A stretch of DNA of 61,710 nucleotides, the filler included, from Squatina squatina (lineage: Eukaryota), in the NCBI GenBank assembly GCA_031763465.1. It is 4 parts of 4 records of this genome, joined end to end, with 100 filler letters (N's around TTAATTAATTAA, not from the genome) between each part and the next. Parts side by side here need not be neighbours in the genome. Positions count along the whole stretch, not along the records: positions 18,775 to 33,309 come from JARFOE010000001.1; 3 more parts are not named here. One strand, 5' to 3'. The position numbers and the translations under genes are program-made. Shown here piece after piece: positions 18,775 through 33,309 of this stretch. Each line of letters starts with the position of its first letter. The stretch's first letter is position 1. Below the pieces are notes generated by a model. It had not been told where the DNA came from and made no database searches. It saw only the letters and a program-made list of their open reading frames with translations.

Positions 18775-19120
18775 CTCATATCGACATAGCATCATTAATG
18801 TAGATAAAGGTCCCAAGGTTTTTCCACAGAGGCGTAATCAGAAAAAGGATGCAGAGCTTGGGAGGAGTGACCAAAAACTTGTTCAAAGAGATGGGTTTTG
18901 CGGAAGGTCGTAAAGGGGGAGAGGGAGGTGGGGATGCGGAGGAGATTCGGGAAGGAATTCCAGAGTACGGGGGTTTAGGCGGCTGAAGGCACGGCTGCCA
19001 ACAGTGGGGTGAAAGGACTGAGTGCACAAGGGGTCAGGGCCAGAGAACCAAAGATTGGGGGGGTGGGAGAGGGTGCGGTGGCTATATGGCTGGAGGGGGT
19101 TCCAGAGATAGGGAAGGAGC
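18775..19120 (-). mobile_element. L2-type LINE 3' fragment
   Basis: GGAATTCCAGAG...GGCGGCTGAAGGCACGGC motif shared with 45605-45847. Confidence 0.6.
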
Positions 19121-21850
19121 AAATTTGTGGAGAGAATAAATAAGCTACAGAAAGGAATGATTGAAGACTTCCTGCTCCCAACATACAGGGCTTTCAGCAT
19201 TACTAACCAGTACACAGCATCCCCGCAACTGGAGAAATTGGCTGGAGACAACAAGTATTATTGTCTAAAGTAGGCGGCAGTTGTGAAAAGATTTTTAAAA
19301 TGATTTTTTCCTCTCTTGCTTCAACCATTTCCCCAGCAGCTGGTATTACAACCTTCATACTCGCACATCACTGCATTTTGAATCTGCATCTATTTTGTTC
19401 AAGCTGGCAGCTTCACTGATCTCAAGTGGGGGTCAGATAAATCTAAGGCAACCAACACACTCCACACACAGTACAGATCGAACACCAAAACGGGTTGTAT
19501 AAAACAGAATCAATGAGACAATTATGGCATTAAGAAAGCAATTTCAGCAAACTACCACTTCTCACCCCCATCAATATACGTATGTTTGCTTCTATTGCAT
19601 GCTGAACTAGTGCACGACATAGAATGGCTCTTCGAGGGACCATCTTAACACACACTAATTAATTTAAAAACCAACATGGTGAGACACAATAAAGGGTTAA
19701 ATGCTTGGCACACGTCATCAGCTCTGAAGTAATATTCCTCTTTAAAAAGGTTTCATAAAAAGCGCAGACTGTATAATAATAAAGTAATATAATTTTAAAT
19801 GAAACCATTATAATAATTGCCAATCTATTACACATCAGCTGTCCAACTGCTGTAGGGTTTTGGTCCTTCTTTCTCAATAACGTCTGCCGTTATTGACAGT
19901 TGTGCTCATGTACATTTAGCAGTTGTTGGTTTGCAATAATGTAAATTTCATCATTTAAAGCATCTGATACCTATTAGCACAGTCCTGCGGGGTTTCTTTT
20001 GCGAGTAATTAGATCAGGGATATTGTTCTCTTACAAAAGCATGTAGGCGATGGAGAAGGTTGCAAAATGACAGATATTAAATCCAGATGCTGACAATGCT
20101 GCACCATTTAGAAAACCAAAACAATTTATCACGGCTGGGCCATACGTAAAATGTGCACAGATAATCATTCCCAACATCATAATAAAAAGACAGGAAATCT
20201 ATTTGCTGTAATGATAAAACGTGGCAAACATTATCCAATTTTATTTTTGTAAATACAGGAATGAAATCTATTGGACAACATCACATCCAATTTAGAGGCA
20301 TACTTATTTCAATTAAAATGCGTTGTCTACCAACAGGACTTCTAATCTTGAGGACCCGAATTAGTTCAGAGAAAGCATAGATATGACACGTCCATAGCTT
20401 TAATATGTTTTGATATAGCTTTAAGCTATTACAATGACTCACTAAAATTACCAAGGAAGCAGCTGAAGCACGTAGATCATTAAATCTGCAGGTTGGGTTT
20501 GTTGATCTGAACTGGGCCACAGTCAGGCATCTTCTTCACTTCAGTGGCCTTAGGTTAAGGAAGAGGGGGTGGGAGAGATGGTTGAGAGCATAAAATTAAC
20601 CAGGTTACCAGCATCACAAAAGTATTTAGTGAACCCCTGGCTGGAGGTGTGTGTGTGTGCATGGATACTGAATGAAGACAGGATTGTCTTTAGCTTTATG
20701 CAGACAAATAGCCTGTCAACATTCAGTTCAGGCACTTTAACGTACAAGGGGGCAACGATGGAGCTGTAGCCCCAACATTCAAGAGGAGGGTAGAGGAGAA
20801 AACTGGGAGAGAAAAAACAACTTTCATCTAACCAAGCTGCAGTTCCATCCATTCAAAGGGCATTGTTACTTCTGTATTGCTGTTCGCCTGGCCCTCCTTC
20901 CCTAAACTGACTATAACCAGATTACATGCTTACCAGCACCTGTCAAAAAAAACTTGCACTTTGCCCACATTTCCTGAGCAACACTGCAGATGGCAATATC
21001 ACTAAGTAATGCTGTGATTGATAATTACTCCCACAGCAATGGCAATGTTCCTTTATCTTAGTGCATTAAAAATTTATGATTTTTTAGAAAGAAACTATCT
21101 GCTAAGACTGCTTTTTGTACTGGATCATAAGACCATAAGAAGTAGGAGCAGGAGTAGGCCATTCGGCCCGTCGAGCCCGCTCCGCCATTCAATTGGATCA
21201 TGNNNNNNNNNNNNNNNNNNNNNNNNNNNNNNNNNNNNNNNNNNNNNNNNNNNNNNNNNNNNNNNNNNNNNNNNNNNNNNNNNNNNNNNNNNNNNNNNNN
21301 NNATCGGAGTTGTTCAATTTTCTACAGAAAGGCAATGCTCAACAACAACCAGAGATCAATGTGGCAGTAATGATGGCAATTTGGAATTACTCCTTCCACA
21401 ATGACTGCAACATCAGGAATCAGTATTGAGCCATCAAAATGGCTGACACAACTGGCCCTTTAAATGGGATGGAGGGTGCGCACGACAGAAAAAGCCGGCG
21501 TGGGCAATGCCGACTTTCAACGATGGTGGCGCAGACGATTTCCCAACGTGGCATCTAGATTCAGCAGCGCGCTCACCGATGATGTCATCAAGGCCTGCCG
21601 CCGTCAGATGCCATGCCCCCGGTGCACCACATCAAGCACCCAGCTGACACCAGCGCAACAATTCTCTGCTTCAGACCCGGGACGCCAGCAGCGGGCGCAA
21701 GTCCAGTTACACCCGTGTGGCGCCCGTTCTACGCCTGTGCTGGCTGTTCAATTAGGGCCCCCTTAATGTTCTGCAAATATCAAAAATAAAATATAGTGTT
21801 ACATTTTTCATGTACAAGATTCAGAATTCCACACACCAGCTTCACCCCAC

Positions 21851-22050
21851 GTCCTGATCAATATTTATCCCTCAACCATCCTCCCAGATTATCTGCTTAT
21901 TTTTCTCACTGCTGTTCATGAGGTCTCCCCGTGTGAGAATTGGCTGCTGTCTTTCCCTACAACAGGGACTACACTTCAAAAGTAACTCATTGACTGAAGT
22001 GTTTTAGCAGCACATCCTGCGGTTGTGAAGGTCCTACATGAATGCAAGTT
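21851..22050 (+). mobile_element. Deu-type SINE 3' half
   Basis: Homologous to the 10018-10236 copy; ends AATGCAAGTT. Confidence 0.65.
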
Positions 22051-23454
22051 CCTTCCTTGATTCTTTAAATCAGGCCAGTCAGCACGGATGTCCAACAGCA
22101 CATCACAAAGAATTAGCTGCAAAACCAAGGGAAGATAAAGACATAGATCGACTGGCAGGTAGGTGATAACATGATTCAGAACAATATGAAGGAATGCCTC
22201 CTGAAAGTATGAAAAGGAAATACACTGTAATTTTTTGGATTTCAAATGCAATAGGAGCAGAAAAAGGGACTTTAGGAAGCAGAAACATAGATCATTAAAG
22301 GGTTGCAGTGCAAGTAGATACCCTCGCATTCTGGTTACCAAAAGAATTAGAGAGGATAGAAAAAAATGCTTTGCTTCAACAGTGGTTTGGGGCAAAGAAA
22401 TGCACACTTTAACCACTTCGCGTAGAATCCATAAATTCATTTAAAAAGAGATCTGGGGAGCAAACAGGTGAGGGATCAGAAAGATGGCCCATGTGGGAGC
22501 ACATCATTATCCATTTGCAAAGTGAAAGGAGGAAGAATTTAAATATAAATTAGATGATTTCATAAACAATGTGAATAGGGGTGCCTTTTTGAAATGTAAC
22601 ATCACCTTCACCAATGATACAAAGTTGTCAGATGACATCATTTGGGAACAGGTTCAACTTTCACAGTAATTACCAATTAATAGTCTTAGAACAAACTTGA
22701 AAGATGATGAATTAAGTTCATCTACCATAAAATGAAAAGCCTCTCTGCAGAACAGAGTTGCTGATTGTGTGCAGCAATGCGTCCTAGAAAATCTTGGAAA
22801 AGTCGCGTAAACCAATCCATCATTCAGTTGTTACATGTGGCAGAAGTACAATAAATGTCTCCATTTTATTTATTTTTTTGCTTAATCCATCCTACATTTC
22901 TCCGTTTCAGAACCCACTGTTTATACTTTGTGTTATGTGTCCTTTGAGATAAGCCAGAAAGAATAAAAAATAAAGCTTTAACTCCTTGATGCATACAGGG
23001 AGAATAATCCTTTTGATGGGATGATCTTGCATTAAAAAAACATTGAGCCGTGATAAAAGGCAGCAGTTAAAAAACTCACGTTCTTGCATCAAGCAGATGC
23101 TGAAGGAATTTTTGCTGACTTCAAGGCTTCTGCACAAACCANNNNNNNNNNNNNNNNNNNNNNNNNNNNNNNNNNNNNNNNNNNNNNNNNNNNNNNNNNN
23201 NNNNNNNNNNNNNNNNNNNNNNNNNNNNNNNNNNNNNNNNNCGGTACATTTGTCAGCCTTCACACTTGTGAAGGTACTTGGAAGGAAACCTGCTGACTCA
23301 CTACTTCATTTCTGACCTGATCAGGTATTCGATGCGTGACTTCACTGATCCTGCTGCAATTCTGTACGATTTCAGCAAGCACTTAAAATGCATTTTAAAT
23401 TGCTAACTGAAGTTAAGATGAGAAGGATTTTTTTTTTAAAAGACAAAACAATAC

Positions 23455-23524
23455 CTTCTGTCACATAGTTATGGTCTCGGAGAAAGCTGTTGTTGATTTT
23501 TCGCGTATCAATGTCCTCGCCCAT
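23455..23524 (-). CDS. PPP2R2C: PP2A B55-gamma first coding exon ([23 protein letters not shown])
   Basis: ATG at 23524, GAAG|GTATT donor, 70 nt; B55 beta/gamma N-terminus; MGED, YVTE and head-to-head position with MAN2B2 favour PPP2R2C over PPP2R2B; missed by the ORF track. Confidence 0.88.
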
Positions 23525-23600
23525 TGACAGCAGGGTTATTCGGCATGCCGATCCGCAGTGGACTATAAGCAGAAGAGGTCGTCACAACAGCAGCATCCAT
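23508..23600 (-). promoter_or_regulatory. 30-codon upstream ORF overlapping the PPP2R2C start out of frame
   Basis: AGTATGG at 23600, no stop until TGA at 23510-23508, 17 nt into the CDS; second in-frame ATG at 23545. Confidence 0.6.
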
Positions 23601-26600
23601 ACTCCCACTGCCTAGCAGAGGTGGAGGAAGGCGAAGGGTGTGGAGCACAGCATAATGTGGTTTAGTGATGCAGCACAGCTTTACAAAAAAAGGAGAGAAA
23701 AAAAAGATAGAGCGAGGGGGTGGGAAACTGGAAGAGGGAAAANNNNNAAAGTGACACAGTGTCAAAAAAAAATAACCAAGCAAGAGGTGGTCTATTGTAG
23801 AGGGAGCTTTTTTCCACAGTACCAGATCACTTCTGCAGTAAAAACAGCCAAATCAATCTTTCAGTCAGGAACTCCTCAAACAAGAAATACCCCCGTGCAG
23901 AATCTACTCGAGAGCTGCTGCAGGATCTCGAAACGGTTGCTGAGAAAGTGGCACCTCTGAGCAGCACTTGGAAGAAGTGCACTGCTGCATTAGGTGCCTG
24001 TGGAGACTCAGTAAAAACAGGGGTACTATGTGACGGCTGCTCCTGCTGTCATATGTGCATGCTGCATCAGGACAAGCCCCTCCCAGGCATCCTGTCAGCA
24101 TCCAACCACGTTAGTCCGCATTTCTGGAGATGAAATATGGCACTGCAGGTGATTAAAAGAAAGAACAGCCATCGCATTATAATTTGGTGGAATTCTTCAG
24201 AGCAAAAACCACTTCTGTGCCAGTGGATGAAAAAAAGAGTCACAAGCATGTTAGTTCCTACAGGAAAATCGTTAATGAATCAATTTATTTTAGAGAGGGA
24301 AAAAAAGAGGGACAGCACATTCGGTACCACACTCTGCTTCAGTTATTAGCCCGAGTGTGTGAAACATGTTGAAGGCATTGAAACCAGCGGCGTTGCTATG
24401 AAGCAGCACTGAGGTTCAGTAGCATCTGCCTGAAACAGTTTATTTGTCTTCCACTTTGTCCTCACTTTCCCCTCAACCAGGGACCAAATTGACAAATAAA
24501 AATCTAACCTACTTAATGCCAAATGTTCGTATGTTAGTGCCAGTTAATGCCATTCTCCATGAATTGGCAAAAAAATATTTACGTCAAGCAGTGAGGGAAA
24601 AAATCATGTGCTATTGAAACTATTTTCCATTCCAAAGATAGCTAGAATTTATTGCAGTAATCATTAATCTATTTACAGAAAAACTCCTAAAATCAGCATG
24701 ACTGCACAGTTACCGATTTATTCTGAATTTAGTGAAATTAATAGATGAATAATATGGCTTTAAAGCAGATTTGTGGCTTTATAATGGATAATGCAGATAT
24801 AATAGTCAGTCAGTNNNNNNNNNNTAACACTGTCAATAGTACATGTCTAGCATTTTAAAGCAATGTCTGACTTCACATGCCATGAAGCCAAGAAGTAAGT
24901 TTAACACTTCCTTTTATAAAAGGAGTTTATACTACACATTTTTGGTGTATTTATACTACTCAGGCACATAGCAGTTCACAAATGTGGAGAATACTGACCA
25001 TCACAATAGAAAACAGTAGGTCCATGATCATATTGACAATAATGCAAGGGCTGGAGCATGTTAAATAGNNNNNNNNNNNNNNNNNNNNNNNNNNNNNNNN
25101 NNNNNNNNNNNNNNNNNNNNNNNNNNNNNNNNNNNNNNNNNNNNNNNNNNNNNNNNNNNNNNNNNNNNGAGAAAAAAAAATATTTAGCTTGTGTTGACTA
25201 GTTGCTCAGACCAATAACTCTAGCTTCCACCATCCCCTGCCCTTAATTATTCCTATTGTCTTTTCGGGGGAGAGAAGACGACTTATAAGTTATGCATCCA
25301 TCATGTGTACTTTATTAAAATAATTTTTCATAATTAAAATGTCACACAGCTCCAAATCATTATCAATATAACTGACCATTTTATTAGCCATGAGTTTGAT
25401 CTTGAGATTTCAATAAGCTGACTTTAGATACATACAGAATGAAATCAACTCATGGCAAGCCCAAAAGCAAAGATTGGAATTCTTCCCTGACCAAAAGATA
25501 ACATTTCTCTAGATGTTGTCTAATGCAAGAAATATTGGTTATTTAATTATTTAGGTCAGGTTAGGTTCCAGACTTCCTAGTCTGTACAGATTATAATCAC
25601 AATGGATGACATTATTCATTCATTGGTACAGAATAGCCAAGCAACATATAAAACGTATTAAATCTGCAGTGCTCCAGTACACATTACATAAAACCTGAAA
25701 TGCCAGAGTTTCTTCAGATGCAATTTGGTTGAAGGGCTAAAGTCACATTCTGACACTATGATAAATTAGTGCAATTTTGAGAAAAACCACTCATGCCCTC
25801 AGAGAACAGAAGGTCCCAAAAGCTTAGTTCTTAATGATAACAAATGGTGGAATGGAGTTTCGTTGGTGGAGGGGCAGGGGGGCATGGGGTTAACTTGCAC
25901 ACAGTAATCAGTGACTTCATCAGTATATACCTGTGGTCAGAAGTAAAATANNNNNNNNNNNNNNNNNNNNNNNNNNNNNNNNNNNNNNNNNNNNNNNNNN
26001 NNNNNNNNNNNNNNNNNNNNNNNNNNNNNNNNNNNNNNNNNNNNNNNNNNCGGAAAAAAAAAATCAAGCGATACCAGCAGATCTTAACGATATTGTGAAT
26101 TAATATCATAAACCTGGAGCGCTTCAGCAATCATGTCATTTTCAACAAGTGTATTAAATTCGGTCTCTCCATTTCAGCTAGATTAGTAACTCGTCCAAGC
26201 ACTGATGAAATCACTCGCAGAGCTTAAATTAATGTTTTTGTTCTGAAAATAAAACATCAATAAAAGTTTTTTGAAAAAGCATCAATGCTAATACTCTTCA
26301 AAATTAACATTTTTGGTTTCCGATAATTCATTTATGATAAGCACAGAACCTTTTAAAATTATAAAATCAAAGTGACACCATTTTTATTTGCTCTTGCATA
26401 TGTGATGCAAGACCTCTTTGCATATAATTCATTCTATTTAAAATAGGACGTTCCTATTTTCCTCTCCATGAAGACAACTCATGTAAAAATTATTGGGAAT
26501 TTGTCCTTTTGACCTTATGCTGTTACGAGCCAAATTGGTTTAGGAACAGGAGGAGGCCATTCAGCCCCTCAAATCTGTTCTGCCATTCAATTAGATTGCG

Positions 26601-26921
26601 GCTGATCTGTATCTCCACTCCATTTACCCGCCTTGGTTCTGTGATCCTTAATACCCCTGCCTAACAAAAAACCCAATCAATCTCGGTTTATATTCCTTCC
26701 CTATTGGGCTAATTTGATAATTCACTGCATAAAGAGTCAAGACTTCAACTGAGCCAAGCAGACTAAGAAGATTCAGCGATTGATCCTCACGCCAGCTGAA
26801 CTAGGAGTGGGAAGTGTTGGAATTGACCCCACCAACTCCAGACCAGAATCAGCTAGAACTGCTCTTCCTGATCAATACCTAGTGATTCCCAACTACAAAT
26901 GCAAGTATAAACGAAAAAGAA

Positions 26922-27074
26922 AGACTTGAATTTATATAGCGCCTCTCATGACCACTGGATATCTCAAAGCGTTTTACAGCCAATGAAGTATTTTTGGAGT
27001 GTAGTCACTGTTGTAATGTAGGAAATGTGGCAGCCAATTTGTGCACAGCAAGCTCCCACAAACAGCAATGTGAT
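26922..27074 (-). mobile_element. Deu-type SINE 3' end
   Basis: Homologous to 10018-10236. Confidence 0.7.
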
Positions 27075-27473
27075 NNNNNNNNNNNNNNNNNNNNNNNNNN
27101 NNNNNNNNNNNNNNNNNNNNNNNNNNNNNNNNNNNNNNNNNNNNNNNNNNNNNNNNNNNNNNNNNNNNNNNNNNAACGCCAAGCTATTGGTTTCTCCAAA
27201 ATTAGGAGCCAATAATGCTTTTTTGACATTCATGCAGTGCAGAAAAAACAGGATTCTGCCAAAATTATACACACAACAAACTGAAGTGCGATATTCATTG
27301 GTTATGTGACTTAACTGGGATGAAACAATTGAGTGTTAGTATCACAAGGAAAAATAGTCTGTGAACAGTGGGCCCTGACTTGTAATGGGGGGTGGCAGTG
27401 GGAAGAAAAAATATTTTACAGTTGATCAAATCAGATTCAAGGAAATATAATCATCTTTTTCAATGTTGTTTAG

Positions 27474-27651
27474 ATCTGGCTTTTTTTGGAATGGAGTTGC
27501 TGTTTTTCCTGATCCACCAAAAGATGGAATTTACCCCAATATGAGTCTCCCAGTGACCAGTGAGACAATTCGTGCCTATGCAGAAACCATGGTCGCAAAC
27601 ATTAAAGAGAGAGCAGCTTGGTTCAGATCTAGCCATGTTCTGTGGCCGTGG
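27474..27651 (+). CDS. MAN2B2: MAN2B2 (GH38 alpha-mannosidase) exon ([24 protein letters not shown]...[14 protein letters not shown])
   Basis: TTTAG acceptor, TGG|GTAAGA donor; 178 nt. Confidence 0.94.
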
Positions 27652-27662
27652 GTAAGAGCTGC

Positions 27663-27663
<1 letters not shown>

Positions 27664-27705
<42 letters not shown>
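27664..27705. repeat. (CA)n microsatellite, about 21 units
   Basis: Direct reading; 12 nt downstream of the MAN2B2 donor. Confidence 0.97.
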
Positions 27706-27707
<2 letters not shown>

Positions 27708-27999
27708 TTTTTGTTGTTTCAAAATGTTGAATGTTGCTCGTGCATTTGCTGTGCTGCAGTGTGCACTGTGACTCATTCATGGAATTGGATCGGAATGTTG
27801 AGAATATAATTAAATAAGTTGTAACAAGTAAAAAGTTGTATTCATTTCATGTATATAATTCATGTATGAATGCGCCCATCCTTTATTCCAAGTACGATTC
27901 TTCCAGGTTCCATCCCACACAAATGATATTTCCCCTATTTACTTTTTACTTGCCTTTTGATTCCAGCTCCTGACACAGTCATTCTCATGTAAAGGTTAT

Positions 28000-28750
28000 G
28001 CTGGCATTATCAACTTTGAATCACTGAGTTGTTAAATCAGTGCCTGACATTAAGACCTGATGAGTCGTAACTTCCTCTAGCTAAATGTCACAAAAACTGA
28101 AGCAATCCGCCTTGATTCCTGTAATCTCCTTTACATCTCCAGCATTGACTCCCTTCGATCAGCCTGGCTGTCACCTCCAGTTAAAGCCCGGAGGTGTGGA
28201 ATCTTGGTGTGCTGCTTAGCTCAGCTTCTTTCCCCATATGGCATCTTTGACTAAGACCACTTCCATAACCAAAATGTTTCCCATCTTCACCACCAAAACG
28301 TGTATTACCCCAAAGTTAACTTTCTGCAATGCTTTCCGTTCTGGCCTGCCTGATTGCACCCATTACAGGCTATAACTAATCTATAATACCTTGCCCTGTG
28401 TATATGTATACACACACACACACACGTACCTCCATCACTCCTCTTTGCCAAGCTCCACTGGCTTCCTTGTGCCCTAATAAATTGACTTTGAGATAATTGT
28501 TCTCACCTTCAGTTCCTTCCATGTTCTCACCTTCAAATGCTCCCATGGCCCTATCTTAAATTCCTGTAGCTGTATGTCTTCACATGCACTTCCAGCCTTC
28601 TGACACTGGCTTACTTCTTTTCTGTTTCGTCAGCCATTTATGGCCTTACCTCTGAAACTGCCCCTCCCTCAACACCTCTGTTTTGCCACTCCCTTCCCAA
28701 CTTTCAAAAGCTTTCTATTGACCTTTCTCTTTGACCTGTATTTTAGCTCC
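28000..28750 (+). mobile_element. Old degraded L2-type LINE fragment
   Basis: LN..KTE.I, V.NLGV and ITP.L..LHWLP....I.F remnants. Confidence 0.5.
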
Positions 28751-28925
28751 TCACCGCCCGCTTTCTTCCCTTTCTTCCTCATGCGCAGTGTCCACTCGAT
28801 CTGTTCATTGGCCTGCAACGCATTCTCATGTTTCCCCATATATGAGGAGCATTAAAATGGTGTCAATTTGTGTGTTACCTATTTTTCCCCCTTTTATTTT
28901 CACCTCTTTATTTTTTATCCCGCAG

Positions 28926-29124
28926 GGCTGTGACAAGCAGTTCTTCAATGCCTCTGTGCAGTTTGAGAACATGGATCCATTGATGGATTATATCAACCAA
29001 CATGGAGATGAATTTGGAGTTACAGTACAATATGCTACATTAAGTGAATATATGCAAGCTGTTCACAATGCAAACCTGACTTGGGACATTCGAGAGGACC
29101 AAGACTTTCTCCCTTACTCCTCAG
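28926..29124 (+). CDS. MAN2B2: MAN2B2 exon ([24 protein letters not shown]...VQYATL...DFLPYSS)
   Basis: Pyrimidine tract plus CGCAG, G|GTAATG donor; 199 nt; in phase with the previous exon. Confidence 0.95.
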
Positions 29125-29428
29125 GTAATGAAAGGCAAACAAAAAAAAAAATCATCTCTGTGGGAGCACACATTGTTTTAAATTCGGAGAAAACAGGCCA
29201 CTTTTGTGTCCTTTTGTAAAAACCCTTTTGCTATTGTTGAGGGCCCAAAAAAGTATTGAATCTGCTAATGTAGGGTTCTTTGGAGATGGTTTCAGTGGCA
29301 TAAATGGGAGGGCAAAAGGTGCCTTAAGTTGTATGTTGTTTCTCTGCCTCAGTGGGCACTGGCCTCTGAACTTCAAACTTCTCAAAAACAGTTTAAAAAT
29401 TATCTGTGGGTCACATGGAGGTCATTGC

Positions 29429-29592
29429 CAATGTTCCCTTTAAGCTGCACAGCCGCGCAGTGGTCTGGAGCTCCTGTGCAGGCTGCTCGGCGACGTTTCA
29501 ATTGGAATAACTGCGCACGCGCAAAAAAATTTGAATGTGCCGCGCAGCCGCTTAAAGTGGTCATGCACCCAAAAAAAAAATAGGAAACATTG
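29429..29592. mobile_element. 164-bp hAT-type MITE with TIRs and 8-bp target-site duplication
   Basis: TIRs CAATGTTCCCT / AGGAAACATTG; flanks GTCATTGC (29421-29428) and GTCATTTC (29593-29600). Confidence 0.8.
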
Positions 29593-32365
29593 GTCATTTC
29601 CCCCACCCCCACAGCGAGCATGTGGTACCTATATTTACAGGTGGCCGAATTCATTTACAGCGATCTGATGGATCCCTTTGCAATTTTGTGCAGCAGTACA
29701 TTTNNNNNNNNNNNNNNNNNNNNNNNNNNNNNNNNNNNNNNNNNNNNNNNNNNNNNNNNNNNNNNNNNNNNNNNNNNNNNNNNNNNNNNNNNNNNNNNNN
29801 NNNTGACATATCTGTGCTCAAACAGAGCACAGTTATGGAGTCTTCTTTCAAATGAACATATTGATATAAAAGCTACAATCTGTGTCACAGCATAATTAGT
29901 GAATATGCGCAATTTCTTTTGCAGCATCTCTGAGACAAGCGAATGTTCAAGAGACAGTGCTTAACTGTTAATCAGAAGATTGGTTTTAATTGAAATGCAA
30001 GCTGGAACAATGCAAATACAGGCAAATGTACCGAAAGTCCATATCTTAGGATAACCTTATCAAATGATAATAAGAACTGCAAATGTTAGAAATACGAAAA
30101 TGAAAACAGAAAAATCTGGAAATATACAGCAGGTCACTTTTATATTGGTTTTAAGGGAGATGTTAGGACCATTAGCTTTGAACATCTGGCTCATCTGTAG
30201 TTGACAGCAACAAACTTGAAAGACTTGCTCAGGCAAAACCTTGTAAAAGATGAATTTTCCCAGCTGCCGGCCTTAGTAAATCTGACAAACTTACGCTGGG
30301 GTGGCTGCTGGCTGCATAAGACCCATGTGTCAGGTGGCTCTAATACCCCATTAAGACTAAATACAGCTTTTGTCAGAAGCTTGCTGTGAATGTTGCTGTC
30401 CCTTCAGGATAAACAGCATGGCCAATGCATTCAATCTGTTGTCATTAATGAGGTCTGAAATTCTCCACTGCCAGGCTGTTCCGAGCCATCTGTCTGGGAA
30501 TCATAACAGTGTTCATAACTATTTGCTACAAATAAAAAGACTCTTAACAACTTACTGAACTATGTAACGCAATGCTCTCTGTTTCCGTGATTGTGGCTTG
30601 TGGGGTGGTATTTCTTCTTAGAACTTGTACCCATTGTTATTCACTTCCCTCGGAGAGATAAATGGGTTGGGTGGACTNNNNNNNNNNNNNNNNNNNNNNN
30701 NNNNNNNNNNNNNNNNNNNNNNNNNNNNNNNNNNNNNNNNNNNNNNNNNNNNNNNNNNNNNNNNNNNNNNNNNNNNNGCGTTTAACCTGAAGAGGTCTGA
30801 GCTTAATGGGTACCATCTTTTATCAAAAGATATTTGGCAAACCTTTTGCGAAAAACAATTCATTGTAATAGTTGCACAAGACCCGATCAGGACACAAACT
30901 TCTACTTCCCCAAACACAACAAAATTACTAGATTTTATCATGAAGACAGAGCCGTTTTTAAATCTGTACAAGAACCTGGTGATGGAAATAATTTAGCAAA
31001 TATCTGTTAATATATACACAAATAAAATTATTGCTGCCAATTTCACTCTTGCACCCAGCTGACAGAAGTAATCAACATAGGAGTTATCTAACATTCCCTT
31101 CAGATAAAATATAAATATTCCTTTCTATATTATATTTAAATATAAAGTTGATCTTTGTTTGAAAGAGGCCAACTTATTATATGAATTCATAAAACATGGA
31201 ATCACACCAGTTATTAACTCAGAAGTATTGTACATGCATTTCAATTTTCTGAAACTTAAGAAAATCCACTCCCTGAAGTAAAAGCAATCTTCAGAGGGAG
31301 GTACCAAGAAGCCAGTGACCACTTCTACAGGTTGGCTTTCAGTAGCTAATTATATCTCATCTGACTGACAGTAGTTGGCAGCATATACTGTAATTAAAAT
31401 GACATTTCAATTATGCTCGTGTGATGAGAATGCCTTAAATATTTAAATCAGACATTGACAGAATNNNNNNNNNNAACCACATTCCTGAAGAGATACTTTA
31501 TAAAGAAGGTGGTGCAAATGTTTCTTGCATTAGCGAAAAAAAAAAAGTGGGTTATTGTTGGGAATGACAGTCCTCTGGTTTGTTAATGCAAACATTAACC
31601 GGTTTATGGATTAATGCTTCCACTATCATTTCATAGAAATTTTTCCACAGGTTAAAGTAGTGAATAAAGGAATGTGAAATGAACATGATTCTAATATTGT
31701 AAATTTTTGGTTTAAGTGAGCTCCAAATCTTGGCTGTAATGAGNNNNNNNNNNNNNNNNNNNNNNNNNNNNNNNNNNNNNNNNNNNNNNNNNNNNNNNNN
31801 NNNNNNNNNNNNNNNNNNNNNNNNNNNNNNNNNNNNNNNNNNNCTTTATTTTTATCTAATTCATGTTACAACAATAATTTAACTAAACAATGTTCGGTTT
31901 AAATTTAAGTCTTCCAGCAGTACTAGTAATTTTAATGTTGGTAATTATGATCTAGTAAGTTGACTTATTTAAATATGCATTGACACTGAAAGTTTATCCT
32001 TTAGTGCTAAATGGTTTCAACTTCACACTGATGGTAAACTGGTGGTGTATTCTGGAGTCAAGGGCAGATCTAATTCTGTGATGTGAAGGAAGACTCTCTG
32101 GAACGGGCAGTCTTGTACTGATTCAGTTTAACACCACATGGAGTATAAATCCAGTGCAGCATCAAATCTGGTTTGCCAAGTCCTTTGGGCTGGGGCTGTT
32201 GGACCTCCTGGACACTTTGTAAACTACAAGAACAGTCTGATTGTGTTCATAAGTAAACTCAATTTCTTTGACCATCAAACAAAATTGTTGTGCGTTTTGG
32301 ACTATTTATTCAAGTATTTGATCTTGTGCAGTCAAAATTTAATCAAACCGTCACAGAACTCATTC

Positions 32366-33309
32366 CTAAAAACACCTTTTGTTAATGATAGCTGGCCCAT
32401 AGTCTCTGTAATCATTACTCGTCACCCACATATTATTAAATACTGTCAATCTACTTAAAACTGAGGCACCCAGCCAAACAGAATAATTCCTGTTTGGTGG
32501 TGCAATGACTTTAACTGGTAATCCACTGGGAACTTGGAGCTTTATCTCCTTCAGCAGTCTTTGTTCCAGACCTAGGAATAGAGTGGAGCCACCAGATAGT
32601 AATATGTTGCTAAATAGATCTTTCCTCAAGCTTTTATCACATTTTAAAATACTGTTGCAGATCAATTTATGAATTCCAGGTTCCTCCAAACCTACGTTGC
32701 TTGTTGTGAAGAGTAGTTCTGGTGCTTTGTAGCATTCCTTTTGGATTGTGATCAGACTCCCATCAGGGAGTGCATACTCTTGTTGAATGTCGTCCGTATG
32801 ACTTTTGCTCTCCAGCTTAGGATCGAGAGCAACATAGCACAATGTTTCCTTGATGTTCTCAAAGGTCTCCTTATGGATTGTATTTGGGATATTGTGTCCA
32901 CTTTCCAATAGGAGTCTCCTGATATTTTCAGTGATATCATTGCCAGCCAATTTAAGTCTTCTGACAGCATCGGGCAGGTAGTAGCCTTCATAGATGGGTA
33001 CAGCGTCAGTTAATCCAAAGCCACTGTCTAGGACTATTCCCCTGGTGCGTCCTGATGCATAGAGTGCCAAAGTTGCAGGAATAGCCACATACATAGCTGG
33101 CACATTAAAACATTCAAACATGATTTCTGCCATCTTTTCTCTGTTCATGAAAGTAGTCAGTGGAGCAGCAGTCACCAAAACTGGCCTCTCTTTTGATTTG
33201 ATATGTAGTTCAGATGCATAAATGTGCTTCCAGAGCTTCTCCAAAAGCTCCCAAGACGTTACTTCGCCACGTTCAATAGGGTGCTTTAAGGACACGCTGC
33301 CTTTTTTAA
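32366..33309 (-). CDS. Intronless divergent actin-related protein (ARP-T/ACTRT-like), 5'-truncated by the scaffold end
   Basis: Open frame of over 310 codons colinear with actin from about residue 61 to the terminal CF; NREKM, LYASGRT, PIYEG, CYVALD, LPDG, LSGGST, YSVW motifs; TAG at 32368; AATAAA at 32310-32305. Confidence 0.93.

Follow-up and report, generated by a model that had tools for sequence, protein, structure and literature searches.

Two chondrichthyan paralogues of the ACTRT1/2-like lineage with replaced actin catalytic residues

An actin-like frame beside an assembly gap

We analysed a window of 61,710 nt (filler included) from the Squatina squatina assembly GCA_031763465.1. The part of the window from 18775 to 33309 terminates at an actin-like gene, termed gene A, which lies on scaffold C1 of the assembly. 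On the minus strand, from 33307 to 32366, gene A was read as an open frame of 313 codons followed by TAG. The Pfam Actin profile (PF00022) matched the encoded protein with an E value of 1e-93 and 314.6 bits against a cut-off of 27, and the model of an orthologue had the actin fold (TM 0.94), which placed gene A in the actin superfamily. Its protein aligned colinearly with actin residues 61-375, a single 2-residue gap excepted. The features of the locus are as follows, where A and B denote gene A with its orthologues and the paralogous group described below.

32366 to 33307, minus strand: open frame of gene A, covering actin residues 61-375 and the stop (frame, alignment, Pfam)
33269 to 33271, minus strand: H73R in the sensor loop, CGT (codon check)
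33155 to 33169, minus strand: Pro-rich loop with E107A (GCT, 33169-33167) and N111T (ACT, 33157-33155) (codon check)
33077 to 33079, minus strand: Q137P, CCT, removing the side chain by which the attacking water is placed (codon check)
33005 to 33028, minus strand: P2 loop, D154 (GAC)-S-G kept, D157F (TTT, 33019-33017), H161D (GAC, 33007-33005) (codon check)
32846 to 32851, minus strand: K213/E214, kept (codon check)
32486 to 32488, minus strand: K336N, AAT; N336 in 17/17 A and 18/22 B (codon check)
32432 to 32461, minus strand: residues 345-354, with six changes present in none or few of the 17 orthologues (alignment)
32305 to 32310, minus strand: AATAAA polyadenylation-signal match, 55 nt 3' of the stop (sequence match)

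A sequence-only reading of the window had reported an uninterrupted frame colinear with actin, the substitutions Q137P, D157F, H161D, H73R, E107A, N111T and K336N, and a polyadenylation signal about 55 nt past the stop. The frame and the signal were recovered as described, and every codon was as stated. The codon check also indicated that R177 is kept, and further replacements relative to actin were H173D, T149R, R183N, D179K and R210E. The 5' end of gene A is lost to an N run of about 7.6 kb, which abuts the gene in the assembly and at which the stretch ends, so that the first ~59 codons read N. When the assembly was searched with a full-length orthologue, the 5' part did not turn up at any other place. 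The gene had also been called intronless; no intron was present across 313 of ~372 codons, and since the 5' codons are N, intronlessness is demonstrated for these 313 only.

Downstream of the polyadenylation signal, a short repeat element at about 32090-32230 matched many contigs of the assembly. In four sharks, the RefSeq 'X2' models of A skip 60-62 residues within the single exon, with three slightly different junctions. On the window the skip corresponds to 32713-32892 (minus strand), 180 nt that start with AT and end with AC. It may represent either an exitron or a cDNA template-switch artefact; no such joint was found in the run contigs aligned to gene A, and a hairpin behind the 180-nt skip was unsupported (z -1.5).

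Orthologues, paralogue B and kinship with ACTRT proteins

At the top of the best 120 of 574 protein matches of gene A were cartilaginous-fish records named 'actin-1-like' or similar. With cluster members added, seventeen full-length orthologues with 78-90% identity to the gene A protein were identified in cartilaginous fishes, the chimaera Callorhinchus included, in agreement with the earlier view of a real cartilaginous-fish gene long kept intact with its catalytic residues replaced. Paralogue B was represented by 22 full-length records from 22 species; its copy in the S. squatina assembly, on scaffold C46, is one frame from Met to stop, 133 N excepted. All 17 A and 22 B full-length records were colinear; the catshark records are XP_038648463 (A) and XP_038651295 (B). 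P137, D161, T111, R73, D173, D154 and R177 were invariant in 39/39 A/B records, and E107 (to A, T or V) and D157 (to F, Y, H or S) were replaced in all 39. R183 was lost and K336 mostly lost. Among all collected proteins alignable to the actin reference, D161 occurred in 56/56 A/B sequences (isoforms included) versus 0/468 other actin-like proteins compared, and P137 in 56/56 versus 8/468. The P1 loop, which had been considered impossible to judge in the window, is kept in the orthologues: its pattern was detected in 16/17 A and 22/22 B, the sole miss having a longer N-terminus in a search confined to the first 30 residues. The replacements are common to sharks and chimaera and therefore predate the shark-chimaera split.

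No bony-vertebrate record with the A/B signature was present among the best 120 of 574 matches, in a search that needed shared 5-residue words and covered annotated proteins only, with unannotated genomes outside its scope. Such a record would outrank the 58-60% matches of coelacanth, sturgeon and tetrapods. A 50%-cluster search yielded no separate A/B cluster and was uninformative on absence outside chondrichthyans. Among the matches listed for Hemitrygon, Hypanus, Mobula, Narcine and Pristis, B records were present and A records were not, so that gene A has possibly been lost in these five ray genera.

A quick 82-row tree and a 35-row ML tree (IQ-TREE), both including mammalian ACTRT1/2/3, concordantly recovered A as well as B as a monophyletic group in which the chimaera is the basal member. 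The A+B clade (support 100/100) had a long stem (0.34) and joined ACTRT1/2 and the group C genes in a clade of 99.9/100, from which ACTRT3 and actin were excluded. ACTRT3 and shark group D formed the sister clade. An ML tree with ACTRT1-3 had been proposed in the earlier reading, and A+B fall inside the ACTRT1/2-like lineage in it. Three placements of A+B were rejected by AU tests: grouping with ACTRT3/D (p 0.002), grouping with conventional actin (p 0.0005) and a position outside all ACTRT (ACTRT1/2/3; p 0.0016). A sister relationship to mammalian ACTRT1/2 was not the best tree but was not rejected either (AU p 0.19); the tests did not choose between it and a placement of A+B as sister of shark C or of the C lineage as a whole. 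We concluded that gene A is one of two chondrichthyan paralogues in the ACTRT1/2-like lineage.

Four other assignments were rejected. Gene A is not an ACTRT3 orthologue (AU p 0.002), the shark member of that clade being D, nor an independent conventional-actin retrocopy (AU p 0.0005). It is also no 'fresh retrogene', intronlessness being common to relatives in the same genome. Finally, it is not the sole shark gene at the ACTRT2 locus, as it is flanked by a wolframin gene on one side and a DUF4603 gene on the other; gene C of Amblyraja, which is distinct from A/B, carries the NCBI name ACTRT2. ACTRT2 itself lies in the neighbourhood of PRDM16. Thus, of the earlier proposal of an ACTRT orthologue or an independent retrogene, the relationship to ACTRT stands, a 1:1 orthology with ACTRT1/2/3 is not favoured, and a conventional-actin retrocopy falls away.

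ACTRT1/ACTRT2 (Arp-T1/T2) and the C genes resemble A/B in their single-exon coding region as well as in their shared clade. ACTRT1/2 have R73 in 54/56 named records (2 gaps) and have lost His161, mostly to C161; unlike A/B, they keep Q137 (53/56), E107 and N111, and mostly D157. Most mammalian ACTRT3 (ARPM1) carry H73R, D157A and H161Q, whereas Q137 is kept in 14/14 ACTRT3. In contrast to A/B, group C keeps all catalytic residues, and A/B are extra genes in other neighbourhoods. H73R and the loss of H161, D157 or K336, which the earlier reading had listed, are also seen in mammalian ACTRT1-3 and are not peculiar to A/B. Degeneration is thus a habit of the ACTRT family, within which the joint loss of Q137, E107 and N111 distinguishes A/B.

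The shark C and D genes, which are separate from A/B and have normal catalytic residues, group with the ACTRT1/2 and ACTRT3 lineages. Group C (P0047, P0057, P0031-P0059 and relatives) is an actin-like gene without a name that is conserved, its catalytic residues intact, from sharks to birds, platypus and marsupials; the group as compared comprised sharks, coelacanth, sturgeon, amphibians, reptiles, birds and marsupials. None was from a placental mammal among the matches listed, and group C is the probable parent lineage of ACTRT1/2. A genome search did not find gene C in the fragmented S. squatina assembly. The ACTRT3-like gene D has its own copy in this genome, on scaffold C115 (L020, C115:2346127-2349738), where an N gap is followed by pieces reading as conventional actin, which suggests local mis-assembly.

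Neighbourhood, origin and selection

Pfam searches identified JAKMIP, wolframin, DUF4603 and JADE-type PHD genes as neighbours of A on C1. The DUF4603 gene, which we take to be KIAA0232, is oriented head to head with A, and the N run lies between the two. A is located between the JAKMIP gene (94 kb) and the JADE-type gene (63 kb), and B on C46 between paralogues of both, 2.0 and 2.9 Mb away. Genome searches detected JAKMIP on C1, C46 and C189 and JADE-type genes on C1, C46 and C79, and C1 and C46 were the only scaffolds among the matches with both. The two gene families thus flank both A and B, as in paralogous segments; this comparison was post hoc, and C46 makes up 1% of the assembly, although counting by whole chromosomes would bring the chance closer to an estimated 5-10%. 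C46 is connected with C189/C4 by ABLIM, by an amidohydrolase and by a coiled-coil gene next to B, none of which had a C1 match in the genome searches. The genes directly adjoining A are not paralogous to those adjoining B. A search for the EPL1 family failed to recover JADE. The coiled-coil gene adjoining B (L071, C46 ~6.067 Mb) has its paralogue on C189; it presumably resembles shootin-1 and is possibly a second shootin retained in sharks.

The A/B split predates the chimaera-shark split, and the long stems (0.34, 0.13 and 0.18) fit a split before the bony/cartilaginous divergence, between which and a chondrichthyan-stem origin of A+B the AU tests do not decide (p 0.38 and 0.22-0.35, neither rejected). 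According to the accessible text of two reports (PMC7269912, PMC8302630), two genome duplications preceded the bony/cartilaginous split. JAKMIP and JADE-type genes flank both loci, yet C46 links to C189/C4 and the direct neighbours are unlike; we accordingly regard an ohnologue origin as likely, not as demonstrated. On balance, we favour A and B being duplicates from an early vertebrate genome duplication that were lost in bony vertebrates.

The gene had been described as selected, and a dN/dS near 1 had been named as an observation that would speak against this. For the two copies in the S. squatina genome, A versus B, dN/dS was 0.165 (268 codons, dS 1.26). Across 543 sites compared with run X11, from a relative ~95% identical, 19 changes in gene A were nonsynonymous and 5-6 were synonymous. 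The resulting dN/dS of 0.9-1.1 (95% CI 0.35-2.8, deeper variant; 0.25 rejected, p 0.003) is near 1 against this one close relative and rests on 24-25 changes only. Of 17 polarised residue changes, 6 were on this genome's side and 11 on that of X11. The gene A copy carries 13 private changes at conserved columns, six of them in residues 345-354; other elasmobranchs have 0-7 such changes and the chimaera has 22. Two gene A variants, at a depth of ~2:1 and differing in several amino acids, were observed in X11 at 32371-32516, 32558-32676 and 33082-33253; these are possibly extra copies. The value near 1 may reflect relaxation, positive selection, X11 paralogues or assembly error.

One explanation of these counts is that the subfamily is old and functional and that copy A is relaxed or decaying in this shark lineage, with B covering its role. 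The dN/dS against X11, the changes in otherwise-invariant columns on both sides, the six changes in residues 345-354, the lack of A in the ray records listed and the N-filled first codons are in line with it. We nevertheless regard this reading as unlikely: the 313 codons contain no stop or frameshift, the X11 contigs over 32640-33260 contain no indel, and the cleft codons are unchanged in X11. Moreover, the change counts are small, the X11 variants may be paralogues, and positive selection on a sperm protein would give the same picture. The B copy of this genome is also long-branched relative to the squalomorphs Pristiophorus and Heptranchias, similarly to A.

Runs X5 and X9 stem from two studies of one other species and are guessed to be RNA; their contigs covered the gene A frame at ~88% identity without joints. 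They ended near the 3' UTR, and the next 330 nt downstream were uncovered. Run X1 gave short contigs only, at a depth of 2-4, over gene A. Three runs labelled as the same species contained almost none of the sequence words of this stretch, which speaks neither for nor against expression. In the accessible part of a catshark sperm proteome (PMC11083954), an accession list against a heterologous database, the B, C and D accessions tried were absent, an uninformative outcome.

Catalytic site and proposed function

A/B share with conventional actin the fold (TM 0.94), length, W-loop and C-terminus, whereas identity is ~50-52% and catalytic, sensor and filament-contact residues differ. At Q137, H161, H73 and D157 of conventional actin, gene A has P, D, R and F. 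The surfaces considered were the D-loop, residues 202-208, the H-plug, residues 286-290, the W-loop and the partner cleft at residues 341-356. The first four, which are filament-contact surfaces, diverge from actin in A/B, whereas the subfamily has largely conserved the W-loop and partner cleft. The AlphaFold model of the orthologue P0003 had a pLDDT of 91 and the above TM score to G-actin; its alignment was rich in ordinary actins, and cleft detail is therefore little informed. The model of the 313-codon gene A protein, with its 5' part missing, was poor (pLDDT 66).

In the accessible text of the studies concerned, Q137 and H161 set the catalytic waters and Q137A slows actin hydrolysis (PMC10062479), and Q137A and H161A abolish Arp2 hydrolysis (PMC3587832). 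N111, R177, H73, E107 and H161 are reported there to gate phosphate exit through a 'backdoor' (PMC10643162). A/B replace all of these catalytic and phosphate-gate residues (Q137, H161, N111, H73 and E107) except R177. From this pattern, we propose that A is probably a structural Arp that binds ATP without hydrolysing it, probably in the spermatid head. The conserved P1 loop, D154-S-G, K213/E214 and GG(S)xx loop would allow Mg-ATP binding, K213/E214 being adenosine contacts. Hydrolysis would be absent for three reasons: the side chain of Pro137 is not polar, His161 has been lost, and the network that times phosphate exit (E107/N111/H73/R183) is replaced as a whole. Similarly, a canonical filament would not form because the D-loop, 202-208, H-plug and 286-290 differ from actin. 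The product would be a stable structural subunit keeping the actin fold. A perinuclear-theca-like role is suggested solely by kinship with mouse ACTRT2 and ACTRT3, which are spermatid theca proteins in the accessible text of two preprints (bioRxiv 10.64898/2026.06.05.730397; 10.1101/2025.03.27.645694).

Functionally, though not by close kinship, A/B would resemble Arp4 and Arp8, which have the actin fold and replaced Q137/H161. Arp4 is reported, in the available text, to bind ATP structurally without hydrolysing it, with Thr at the site of a replaced residue (PMC3510490). Unlike A/B, which have no insertions, Arp4 and Arp8 are nuclear remodeller subunits with large insertions.

The invariance in 39/39 records of D161, which is not drifting, and of D173 and T111 may also be read as a rewired slow ATPase, in which Asp161 acts as base, a water fills the space at Pro137 and Thr111 leaves the phosphate exit open. 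Parts of the literature, in the text accessible, fit this reading: H161 corresponds to E169 of MreB, an acid proposed as base (PMC9597168); crystals of Q137A show a site that looks near normal, two waters having taken the place of the side chain, and activity is reduced but not abolished (PMC10062479); N111S opens the phosphate exit (PMC10643162); and Arp8 with H161S and H73R retains low activity (PMC3510490). However, the MreB motif wants Glu137 and Thr159, where A/B have Pro and Leu/Ile/Val, and Arp8 keeps a Glu at 137. As the MreB-type Glu and Thr are absent in A/B, the rewired enzyme is a minority reading and appears quite improbable. A nucleotide-free or non-sperm structural protein, with the cleft closed or emptied by the bulky residue 157 (F, Y, H or S in 39/39) or by the loss of R183 and mostly of K336, or with a role in another tissue, has only a slender chance of being correct: P1, D154, K213 and E214 are kept throughout the history of the clade, and the nearest characterised relatives are, in the accessible reports, testis proteins. 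A non-hydrolysing, ATP-bound structural Arp is thus retained as the preferred reading.

No description of the A/B subfamily was found in the literature searched, subscription papers and several supplements being beyond reach. The accessible text of a whale shark paper gives 208 unnamed families lost in bony vertebrates and names no actin. We consider A/B to be real, undescribed genes, whose records carry automatic names only, for instance 'actin-1-like'. Degenerate Arps as a kind are already familiar, and the surprise is limited accordingly. A wider interpretation, drawn from sequence comparison, is an unrecognised vertebrate Arp lineage that branched off the ACTRT1/2 ancestor, lost hydrolysis, was doubled by the second genome duplication and would now serve, in cartilaginous fishes only, as an ATP-locked sperm-head scaffold; as a whole, this remains speculative and rather doubtful. 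If true, it would provide a natural, long-tested catalytically dead actin. Q137 is the residue that is mutated in laboratories when the ATPase of actin and Arp2/3 is to be abolished, and even the divergent mammalian ACTRT proteins compared here retain it. The two genes, in which Pro137 became fixed together with Asp161 and which remained intact across sharks, skates and chimaeras, would offer a natural test of the purpose of hydrolysis in the actin fold. A/B would also imply that early jawed vertebrates possessed a diversified set of sperm-type Arps, and the two may be duplicates that bony vertebrates have lost.

Further intron-poor actin relatives were detected in the assembly (L017, L018, L019, L021 and L023): a near-conventional copy, a broken actin retrocopy on C13 and three ACTL-type genes, which we take to be ACTL7/9/10-like.
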